Below are positions 41,030 to 45,693 of a stretch of 64,000 bases of DNA, one piece after another. The notes under the pieces are model-generated. The model was not told the origin of the DNA and did no database searches. It saw only the letters and a list, made by a program, of their open reading frames with translations. Both the position numbers and the translations under genes were made by a program. Where the stretch lies: positions 143,964,001-144,028,000 of the forward strand of contig OX597817.1 in NCBI GenBank assembly GCA_951406725.2, in the 5' to 3' direction. Each line of letters begins with the position of its first letter. The first letter of the stretch is position 1. This DNA is from Octopus vulgaris. Lineage: Eukaryota.

Positions 41030-41520
41030 AATGAAATTATTGTATATAGTGCTCAGGTGCACCACAACTTGTCAAAAAGTGCATATAAAGCATATGTGCA
41101 TTGTACAAATGTCTGGGAAGTGAACAGTGTATGAGTCAGATACATGCTTGTGTGTTTATGGAGGAGAGAAAATCAGGTGTAGTGTTGGCGGATCTCAGGA
41201 AGTATGCAAGTTTTGAAGGATGCAGTGCTCCGACAACTAACAACTGATGTCGGCAGTTTGTTCCATGCTTCAGCAACTCTTAGCAGGAAAAAATGTTTCC
41301 GAAAGTCATGGGAGCTGTGCTGGTTTCTGACTTTGTAAACATGTCCACGGGTGTTAGACAGGTGGAATTTGAAAAGGTGCTCAGAGTTATTGTTTGTAAG
41401 ATGGTTAATAATTTTATGGGTGTCTGCCAAGTCAGCTGCCAGACGTCGGAGTTTCAATGTACCCATGCCCAGAGAAGTAAGGCGTTCAGAATATGGCAGA
41501 TGCCTGATGGAGGGTATTCT
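41030..41520 (-). mobile_element. CR1-clade LINE 3' end
   Basis: YSERLTSLGMGTLKLRRL..DL...HKI...TRGH..K......RKHFF..RV..AWNKLP..VV; (TTA)n tail. A second copy lies at 45365-45693. Confidence 0.85.
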
Positions 41521-41855
41521 CTTGTATATATATGTATGTGTGTGTCTTCGTGTCTGTGTTTGTCCTCCCATCATCACATGACAACTGGCATTGGGGTTTA
41601 TGTCACTATAACTTAGCAATGCAGCAAGTACCAGGCTTTTAAAAAAGTAAGTTCTGGGAGCCAATACATTCAACTAAAAAAATTCATCCAGGTGGTGCCA
41701 CAGCATGGCCACAGTTAAATGACTGCAACAAGTAAAAGAAAAAAAATACATACATACACAGACATGCACATAAACATACATACACAGACATATAGATACA
41801 TATATATACTTATAATATATATGCATGTGTGTGTGTGTATACATATATATACATA

Positions 41856-43398
41856 CACAGACATGCAGGAAGTAAATAGACACCTTTAATTTTCAAAATT
41901 TCTTATCTAAGCATCTTAATATGATTTCAGTGGTGTAGAATTTATTCTTTTTCATTTCAGGTGCCATTATATTAAACATTTGTGAAGAGTAACCATGCCA
42001 CGCACAAAAAATTCAGCAGAACGGTCAGATTTTCAAAGAGGTCGTATTGTAGGATAATCTGAAGCTGGTCTTAGCCAGCGAAAAATTGCTAAAAATCTTC
42101 AAATTCCTCTTGCTACTGTTAATAGATTTACAGAGATGCACTTGCATAGCAAGTGATTTCAACTGAGATCATGTGCTGAAACGAAAACAATTGCAGCATG
42201 GAAGGTGTTTGTAAGCCATTTAAGAAACACACAAAAGCCGTTCGATTCACTTCAACATTTAAGTTTAATTTGTCAAAATATTTTCGTCGCTTTAAGACTG
42301 CGACCTGTTTACTGACAAAAATCTGTGCTGCATCTGAATCGAACGGCTTTTGTGTGTTTCTTAAATGACTTACAAACACCTTCCATGCTGCAGCTGTTAA
42401 TAGAATTATAGTGCAATTCAAAGGCCAAGGAAAAGACTCAACAGATTCTCATCCTGGCCGACCTGGGTTCTCAGAAAGGAAGCTTCACTGTTTGAAAAGA
42501 ATTGTGGAAAATGAACCCTGTTCGAAGGCTTCTGACATTAGAAAACAGCTAGAAGATAGTCCAAGAATGTGTGTTATATATCTGCATAAGCTTGGGTATT
42601 ATGGACGAGCAGCTAGAAGAAAACCTCTCCTTCAGCCAATTAATATCATGAAAAGAAAGAAATGAGCTAAGGAGATGTCAGAAAAAACGGTTCATTTTGG
42701 TATAGAATGATTTTCTCAGATGAATCCAGATTTGCTTTATTTTCAGACAGTGGACGTGTTTGGGTCTGGAGGCTTCCCTATCAAGAATTTTATTTGAATT
42801 GACTCCAACCAATTGTGAAACATGGCAGTATCTCTGTAATGGTATGGGGAGCTGTCACCAACAATGGTCGTTCTGAGTTGATCAAATGTGTTGAAACCAT
42901 AAACTCTGAAAAATACATTGAAAAACTTAAGCAAGGACTACTTCCGATGTATTCACACGATAACATAATGAAAAATGAGTTTTAATTCATGGAAGATGGG
43001 GCTCCCTGCCACACAGCAAAAAGGCATTAACAATGGCTGACAGAAAATGGGATCAAAAAGCTTCCTTGGCCGAGCCAATCTCCTGACATGAAACCAATTG
43101 AAAATCTTTGGAGTATACTAGACAGAGCTATACGAAGAACTTGACAGAAACCTAAATCTAAAGATGAATTGTTTTGATTGTTGCGTGAAAATTGGGCAGA
43201 AATTCCACAAGAGACAATCACAAAGTTCATCAGTTCAAAGCCAAAAAGAGTTTCTGAATTAAAAACTGCAAAGGGAATGTCAACTAAATACTAAAATATG
43301 TGGTCCTAGCTGTCGATTACATTTCATTTGTTCGCTTTGCATATTAAGTAAAAGATTTTGAAAATTAAAGATGTCTATTTACTTCCTACATGTCTGTG
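41856..43398 (+). pseudogene. Tc1-like transposon, decayed transposase
   Basis: TA|cacagacatgcaggaagtaaatagaca... / ...tgtctatttacttcctacatgtctgtg|TA; motifs [43 protein letters not shown]. Confidence 0.9.
42127..42393 (-). mobile_element. 267-bp hairpin-forming insertion with an HHR-like scaffold inside the Tc1 ORF
   Basis: 11-bp TSD ctgttaataga (42116-42126 / 42394-42404); 58-bp inverted arms 42192-42249 / 42335-42392. Confidence 0.85.
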
Positions 43399-44939
43399 TA
43401 TATGTATAGCTCTGTGTGTATGCATAAAACCTGTTCATTCTATCATCATTATCATCCTCATTTAGCATCTGCTTTCCATGCTAGCATGGGTTGAATGGTT
43501 TAACTGGGGTTTAACTTGAGTGTAGTGGGTGCTTTTAACGTGCCAGACGGGGCTGGCAAACGGCCACGGTCAGATGGTGCTTTTTACGTGCCACCGGCAC
43601 GGAGGCCAGTTCTTCCAGTCCTTCCAAGCCTGTTTCTTTTGTCTAATAGCCCTGTCAACAATATTGTTCCACCACCACGTTATTTTGGGTCTTGAGGGGA
43701 CTTTGCACCAACCACAGATCTGGTCAGTGGCTCTCAGCAGGTTGTCTCTTAGAGACCTCCAGTTGTCTTCTACCCCATGTGAAGCTATAACCCTTTCTAT
43801 TTCGTCAAAGTATTATAATTTTTTGTATGGATTCTGTAGATATTAATGGATTTTCACATGCATTTCCAGTAAAAGAATTTCTGCTGTATGACAGCATATG
43901 ATAGCTGATACCAGTGGAAGAGTTTTGTAAAGCACGTTATAAGGTTATTATCCAAATGATATTACATAATTTAAATGCATATTGAAAGAAAGGCTGTCTG
44001 ACCAATATAATCTGTCACATAATAGCACAGAATTCTCAATAAATAATAAACAGTAAGTTAGGCTATTTAGAGCAGTGACATTAAACTACATGGTGTAAAA
44101 ATGGAAGAGATTTAGACAACTCAGACAAATCACAACACGCATGCACGCGAACACACACACACACACACACGTGTGTGTGTATGTATATATAACTGCAGTG
44201 TGTTTTATCACTATGGTTAAAGTGATACATCATGGATTATATAATAAACTAATTTTGATGTCATTCATCACTCTTTTTATCTCTGTTTTATATTTTTTCT
44301 CTTTTCTTTTTTTTTCTTTTTTTTCTTCATAGAATCAGCTTGAAACATAAAAATCAAAAAAACTTTTCATAAAACAGAATCCAAGAACAGACTGTTGGTA
44401 AGACTAATCACCATCATCATCATCATCATAATCACCATCATCACTGCTGCTGCCACCACCATTGCCACTGTCATTTGTAATTATTCTCCTGAAGAGAGCA
44501 AGTAACCACACACACACACACACACAAACACATATACACATGCACACACACATACACAAACACACACACATACACATGCACACACACACATGCATACACA
44601 CACTTGCACACAAACATGCATACACTTGCACACACACACACACAGATACATATATTTCTTTTATCCTTTACTTTTTTACTTGTTTCAGTCATTTGACTGT
44701 GGCTATGCTGGAGCACCACCTTTTGTCGAACAAATCGACCACAGGACTTATTCTTTGTAAGCCTAATACTTATTCTATCGATCTCTATTGCTGAACCACT
44801 AAGTTACGGGGACGCAAACACACCAACATTGGTTGTCAAGCGATGGTGGGGGGACAAACACAGACACACAAACATACATATACATACATATATATATATA
44901 CATCATCATCATTTAGCGTCCGTTGTCCATGCTAGCATG

Positions 44940-44983
<44 letters not shown>

Positions 44984-45364
44984 GCTTCTTTCAGTTTCCA
45001 TCTACCAAACCCACTCATAATGCTTTGGTCAGCCTAAGGCTTGTAGTAGAAGACATTCGCTCAAGGTGCTATGCAGTGGGGCTGAACCTGGAACCATGTG
45101 GTTGGTAAGCAAGCTACTTACTACACAGCCTCTCCCACACCTGTATGTATATATATTTACTGTAATTATATCAGCAGACAATGCATATTGCTCTCTTAGA
45201 GTGGAAATGGAATACGGGTTAAGGTATGCCTCTGTGGTTATGAAAACTTTTGTCTAGGTATTTGGTTTGGGGTTCAATCCTACTGCCTGGCATTTAGAAT
45301 GAACTTCTTCCATTACAGCTTTAAATCAACCAGAGTTATGTGAGTGAAATGTACTGGATGGAAA

Positions 45365-45693
45365 CCCGTGAACATGTTTACAAAGTCAGAAAATAGCACA
45401 GCTCCCATGACTTTCAGAAACATTTTTTCACGCTAAGAGTTGCTGAAGTATGGAACAAACTGCCGGCATCAGTTGTTAGTTGTCGGAGCACTGCATCCTT
45501 CAAAACTTCCGTGCTTCCTGAGATTCGCTAACACTACACCTGATTTTCTCCCCTCCATAAACACGCAAGCATGTAACTGACTCATACACTGTTCGCTTTC
45601 CAGACATTTGTACATTACTGCATATACTTTATATGCACTTTTTGACATGTTGTTGTGCACCTGAGCACTGTATACAATTTCATTATTATTATT
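45365..45693 (+). mobile_element. CR1-clade LINE 3' end (same family as 41030-41520)
   Basis: catgactttcagaaacattttttcacgctaagagttgctgaagtatggaacaaactgcc ... cattattattatta. Confidence 0.85.

Follow-up and report, generated by a model that had tools for sequence, protein, structure and literature searches.

Position 8 of the hammerhead ribozyme supplies a 2'-hydroxyl implicated in catalysis, and the 3-8 pair has classically been probed by engineering the double exchange C3G/G8C. A G3-C8 core of natural origin is described here from Octopus vulgaris (GenBank assembly GCA_951406725.2, contig OX597817.1, forward-strand positions 143,964,001 to 144,028,000; this whole stretch of 64,000 nucleotides is called the window). 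It lies in a 267-bp insert that is the 5'-truncated pseudo-long terminal repeat (pLTR) end of an endonuclease-bearing (EN+) Penelope-like element (PLE). Statements about earlier work refer to those parts of the cited papers that were available.

The closest described motifs are the minimal type I hammerheads that Cervera & de la Pena (2014, PMC4209133) reported from the pLTRs of metazoan PLEs; they share with the octopus motif the position in the pLTR, an unpaired base between 9 and 10.1, G10.1-C11.1, a short palindromic helix III and thousands of solo copies. The octopus motif differs from them in its G3-C8 core and in having G as the extra base. The same study reports a natural U3-A8 swap in Schistosoma, and in the available part of its supplement none of nine "GUGA" passages is a GUGANCA core. 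Perreault et al. (2011, PMC3088659) also document 3-8 covariation in nature, again as U3-A8; G3-C8 was not found among the natural variants in the available part of that paper. Frangieh et al. (2024, PMC11167929) have characterized PAc, the Poseidon PLE of Anolis, which resembles the octopus element in having a hammerhead near the start of its open reading frame (ORF) and two internal start sites of reverse transcriptase (RT) that match the tail described below. Cleavage by the PAc hammerhead is partly rescued by engineered C3G/G8C; the octopus swap, unlike this one, is natural and fixed, its ORF has a CX2-5CxxC linker, and its predicted cut precedes the ATG by 56 nt instead of following it by 26 nt.

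The EN+ PLEs of Neptune/Nematis type (Craig et al. 2021, PMC8557442) share with the octopus element a C-terminal GIY-YIG domain, a zinc-finger-like linker, inverted 5'-truncated copies, a tail and a bias towards (TA)n targets; their tail is 30-40 nt long, in contrast to about 60 nt here. Their CX2-5CxxC linker between RT and endonuclease is present as CQSNCAVC. In the literature covered, which did not extend to Lunse et al. 2017 or Przybilski & Hammann 2007 and took in supplements of PMC4209133 only, G3-C8 was found in engineered mutants and not in nature; the available parts of PMC6765202, PMC6155905 and bioRxiv 10.64898/2026.07.22.740005 do not mention a natural case. The natural G3-C8 core variant is well supported and apparently unreported before, and the element class, hairpin and target-site duplication (TSD) are ordinary PLE biology.

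The element and its motif

The reading preferred here, with a probability of roughly 0.68, is that the insert is a truncated PLE with a natural G3-C8 type I minimal hammerhead, that the family is likely weakly self-cleaving, and that the window copy has likely been inactivated by G5A. The identity of the element is established by full-length copies, which link the pLTR to an RT/GIY-YIG ORF and a second pLTR; the insert is linked to this ORF, and a lack of linkage is excluded. Full-length relatives (L086, L087, L088 and L139) have one ORF that encodes RT and, C-terminal to it, a GIY-YIG domain, laid out in L087 and L086 as pLTR-ORF-3'UTR-pLTR. The pLTRs of L087 flank the ORF and take in its first codons (ATG 56 nt past the cut), and both hold an intact G3-C8 motif, at 2242 and 6503. 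The PLE ORF that begins in the window runs on into RT and GIY-YIG in full-length copies, and RT and GIY-YIG coding sequence also lies upstream in long copies. Eighteen copies extend beyond the usual 3' end, and 3 of the 18 enter the full ORF, which starts MAYKHLP.

The ORF carries the motifs DKSG, GGAIG, YVDD, CQSNCAVC and YQIKC..YIGET. Of two endonuclease-bearing fragments, Pfam recognized GIY-YIG (PF01541) in one (L061; E 2.6e-5, above the cut-off) and had no match in the other (L064), and the scan of PLE fragments gave no RT match; a PDB sequence search with the ORF returned 0 matches. The insert is present in high copy number, with 2,974 candidates (40 scored) and 7,892 exact matches to a 32-mer around the PLE ATG. 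The 5' end of its sense segment falls at a boundary common in the family, about 59 nt upstream of the cut. Two further kinds of locus were encountered among the copies: an internally deleted derivative shared by L083 and L084, composed of a pLTR, about 177 nt of further ORF and a second pLTR, and a PLE copy beside which lie ORFs resembling, by eye, LTR-retrotransposon pol with protease, RT and integrase (L137:84-2943).

The hammerhead motif is present on the minus strand exactly as the preliminary description of this DNA had given it (Table 1). RNAfold recovered stems I and II, and the palindromic stem III, AAUAUU, was read directly. A relaxed descriptor, which admits any Watson-Crick 3-8 pair and G or A at position 5 and asks for at least 5 bp in stem II and at least 7 bp in stem I, gave a single match in the window and none in the 6.4 Mb that make up 100 shuffles. 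These empty shuffles speak against a chance resemblance to a hammerhead, in whose favor it may be said that no hammerhead family is among the 44 Rfam matches at E<=10 in 41500-43000 and that the window copy is off consensus at 3, 5 and 8. Chance, which was given next to no probability, is refuted by the canonical CUGANGA cores that related families have at the homologous place and by covariation. The miRNA matches offered by Rfam were rejected as generic hairpin resemblance below the gathering score.

G5 is needed for hammerhead catalysis, and since the window copy has A at this place it lacks a required core residue and is probably inactive. The preliminary description had suggested that A5 may be a copy-specific inactivating change. 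A5 is rare, with 0 of 67 in motif copies sampled regardless of core and 3 of 33 in a set made up of the window copy and the sequences that match it best; the inactivation is probable, given the requirement for G5. Minimum-free-energy cofolding of two motif copies gave no dimeric stem III, a helix too short for this result to be informative.

The 3-8 pair in the family and its relatives

That the family consensus would be GUGAACA, a core missed by searches for CUGANGA, had been predicted from the window copy, and the predicted consensus is borne out: exact matches to a 20-mer number 6,323 genome-wide (control, 0), and GTGAACA occurs in 58 of the 67 motif copies. Among 102 pooled copies, 99% have G3 and 93 have C8. 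In the consensus of this family the canonical identities C3 and G8 are thus replaced, with a Watson-Crick 3-8 pair kept; U4, G5, A6, A9, G12, A13, A14, A15.1, U16.1 and H17 are kept, as are, together with G3 and C8, stems I and II, G10.1-C11.1 and the palindromic stem III. A base other than G at position 3 accounts for 218 matches, and the 100 of these that were listed include no C3-G8; C8 is kept in 2,572 of the 2,731 copies that share one 29-mer context. No variant reached a depth of at least 8% in stems or core in any of four runs with four organism labels (contigs only). Three A8 copies of the motif spaced about 3.4 kb apart (L196-L198) were seen separately, an arrangement that suggests a long tandem array.

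A compensatory swap had been proposed at first, and comparison of related families indicates that G3-C8 arose naturally as such a swap from ancestral C3-G8, because these families have C3-G8 at the homologous place and stems I, II and III covary, as does the 3-8 pair itself. The sister family, 66% identical in amino acids over the queried 179-aa stretch, has C3-G8 there, and its protein shares 98.9% identity with a publicly deposited one that bears the label Octopus vulgaris. Further families contribute 1,483 canonical C3-G8 matches just upstream of the homologous ORF start; family B has 3,186 matches, nearly all C3-G8 among the 100 listed. The closest look-alike, family D (L147), combines C3-G8 with U17 and has 2 exact pattern matches. 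Among 26 metagenome relatives, 4 have the motif (three C3-G8, one U3-A8, no G3-C8), and a descriptor found no match in the other 22, many of which are short contigs; one metagenome locus, L238, has C9 together with U3-A8. An RT tree, which does not include family D or named reference PLE sequences, places the G3-C8 family as sister to a C3-G8 family (SH-aLRT 100), and those outgroups that have a motif bear C3-G8 (3) or U3-A8 (1).

Covariation was assessed in 12 hand-picked copies spanning families. Changes on both sides were found in 5 of 12 pairs, in stems I, II and III and at 3-8 (CG 10, GC 2), and four of five measures were reached by 0-1 of 500 shuffles. Some aspects of these comparisons weigh against the preferred reading. 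The fifth measure, of further pair types, was reached by 305 of 500 shuffles, and the outermost tested pair of stem I is unpaired in 7 of 12 copies; the set is small, of related sequences and author-chosen, so that the shuffle counts are no probability, and the RT tree is a quick version only.

Position 17 may have eased the swap. Some C3-G8 relatives (L147, L163 and the young family B) already have U17, and G3-C8 is stated to be less active with C17 than with G17 (PMC3884650, "data not shown"). On these grounds U17 would have made the swap tolerable, for G3 could not mispair with U17 as it could with C17. A young sister PLE family (L132-L134, L164-L183) has intact ORFs of 1,312 aa with an Asn-rich insert.

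The presence of G3-C8 throughout a natural family means that the swap is evolutionarily reachable, and descriptors built on CUGANGA or UUGANAA undercount PLE hammerheads. Close relatives offer natural variants with C3-G8, G3-C8, G3·G8, C9, and C17 versus U17, which make the need of PLEs for cleavage testable; if G3-C8 is active, a single genome holds the ancestral C3-G8 relatives, a possibly permissive U17 and possible G3·G8 intermediates.

Probable self-cleavage by the family motif

The family motif would cleave itself weakly, as a dimer or helped by the protein of the element, and on the sequence evidence its cleavage is considered rather likely. A bolder proposition is that this is the first G3-C8 hammerhead known to be both natural and catalytically active, that it is fixed across a retrotransposon family with thousands of members, and that ancestral relatives, U17 and G3·G8 copies make up the complete compensatory path across the active site of a ribozyme; it is put forward tentatively, with the odds leaning against it. 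An unlikely explanation that nevertheless deserves weight sees in the insert the same PLE with a motif that no longer cuts, its fold kept for RNA folding, for protein binding or through overlap with promoter signals, and the swap having restored pairing under weak selection. Such a motif is hard to reconcile with U4, A6, G10.1-C11.1, GAAA and U16.1, which do not vary in any of the 12 aligned copies in which 3 and 8 have changed together, or with the retention of C8 in the 29-mer context noted above.

Most of what favors a non-cutting motif counts directly against self-cleavage by the family. A pile-up of 5' ends at the predicted cut was sought in 126 genomic segments, and only 4 start within 4 nt of it. 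As many as 105 of the 126 extend upstream past the cut and 61 begin 52-66 nt upstream of it, a distribution that points to uncleaved RNA with a fixed 5' boundary as the template. The matches without C8, of which 100 of 159 were listed, comprise 52 G, 38 T and 10 A by hand count; set against a background spectrum of C>T 54 : C>A 19 : C>G 13, copies with G3·G8 are about five times commoner than mutation predicts, and mismatched masters appear to have transposed. The G3·G8 copies (L135, L191-L235) lie on two subfamily backgrounds and represent a possible mismatched intermediate or a reversion. Position 9 in the young sister family is mostly C and not A, and common variants, counted in non-CpG columns, are not clearly rarer in the structure (1/35) than in the flanks (11/157). 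The extra base after A9 is G, for which the published consensus has H. An extra G at this place is reportedly harmful in a viroid hammerhead, a finding attributed to de la Pena and Flores in 2001. In the PAc system, hammerhead mutants transposed normally in vitro, so that PAc did not need its own ribozyme there, and none of the RNA reads had its end at the cut (PMC11167929). There is some genomic evidence, then, that cleavage may be dispensable for transposition.

Hairpin, insertion and host site

The hairpin arms, previously described as 58 nt long with one mismatch, are confirmed at that length. They arise from the usual PLE inverted, tail-less second copy, a by-product of insertion that does not belong to the ribozyme. 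Of the 7,892 matches to the 32-mer, the first 100 gave 88 loci, or 84 after removal of duplicates; 42 of the 84 hold both orientations, and each of these 42 has one tailed and one tail-less copy. Element 3' ends fall at ATG+30-39 in 68 of 180 and at +90-94 in 83 of 180. Tabulation of TSD lengths, as the preliminary description had suggested, showed them to vary: among the 9 loci with an inverted arm that lie outside microsatellites, 8 have a TSD of 8-14 nt; (TA)n flanks occur in 12 of 21 loci with such an arm.

Table 1. Coordinates of the insert, its motif and its host site in the window
Feature	Position	Strand	Remarks
Sense PLE pseudo-LTR segment	42127..42334	-	Contains hammerhead and ORF start; 3' end at ATG+93
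First 31 codons of PLE ORF	42127..42219	-	ATG 42219-42217, 56 nt past predicted cut
PLE "tail"	42127..42191	-	On sense copy only
Type I minimal hammerhead motif, G3-C8	42269..42319	-	Extra G after A9, palindromic AAUAUU stem III, U17
Stem I	42319-42313 / 42275-42269	-	
Core residues		-	G3 42312, A5 42310, C8 42307, extra G 42305
Stem II	42304-42300 / 42290-42286	-	
GAAA	42285-42282	-	
Predicted cut	between 42276 and 42275	-	
Inverted tail-less second copy of 42192-42249	42335..42392	+	Head-to-head join via 3-nt TCA microhomology; forms hairpin (arms 42192-42249 / 42335-42392)
TSD, left copy, 11 bp	42116..42126	.	Perfect match to right copy
TSD, right copy, 11 bp	42394..42404	.	Perfect match to left copy
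Decayed Tc1-type DNA transposon	41846..43408	+	Passive target of insert; inverted ends 41846-41910 / 43344-43408

The stability of the hairpin (z about -15), together with a locus of tandem motif-bearing units, could be taken to indicate a self-spreading, non-autonomous hairpin resembling a retrozyme or a miniature inverted-repeat transposable element (MITE), with the arms as its functional termini. This is very improbable: arm length and junctions differ between copies, the hairpin covers one end of the insert only, TSDs are 8-14 nt and not TA, and full-length PLEs have this sequence as their ORF-proximal pLTR. A MITE or Tc1-derived hairpin was rejected on the arms at one end and the 11-nt TSD, and a non-LTR retrozyme because the window copy is single and not made of tandem monomers; an array was seen at L090. 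That locus (L090:2616-3954) consists of eight tandem, tail-less pLTR units of 166-192 bp, each with a G3-C8 motif, and is retrozyme-like; it would permit dimer folding.

For the PLE insertion preferred here, the following course is suggested. The GIY-YIG domain would nick both strands about 11 bp apart, and RT would start inside the RNA, near ATG+92 on one side and near ATG+33 on the other. The two primed cDNAs would meet head-to-head and be joined by microhomology, giving the hairpin. Most cDNAs would end at the 5' end of the RNA, about 59 nt upstream of the cut, as expected of an uncleaved template. The organization of inverted pLTR and tail matches that in PMC3846280 and PMC8557442, and PAc likewise has two internal RT start sites and double-strand nicking (PMC11167929); self-priming on an antisense template is the other proposal (PMC3846280). 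About half of the sampled segments start at a sharp boundary between CAG and ATG (window 42334-42337, minus strand; L087:2200-2225), preceded by a branch-point-like, pyrimidine-rich stretch. Either a start site or a splice acceptor may account for this boundary, and the former is favored because some copies retain a few upstream bases.

The insert interrupts a Tc1-type transposon, as initially noted: re-reading of both sides places LATVNR before and IIVQF after the 267 bp, and the TSD, CTGTTAATAGA, is a perfect 11-mer at both borders. The Tc1 ORF, from 41995, has stops and frameshifts, a decay that is independent of the insert; its downstream part resembles HTH_Tnp_Tc3_2 at E 5.7e-5, under the curated cut-off. 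The Tc1 copy itself lies between inverted arms of 251 nt, 93% complementary and 4 kb apart (41102-41352 / 45364-45614).
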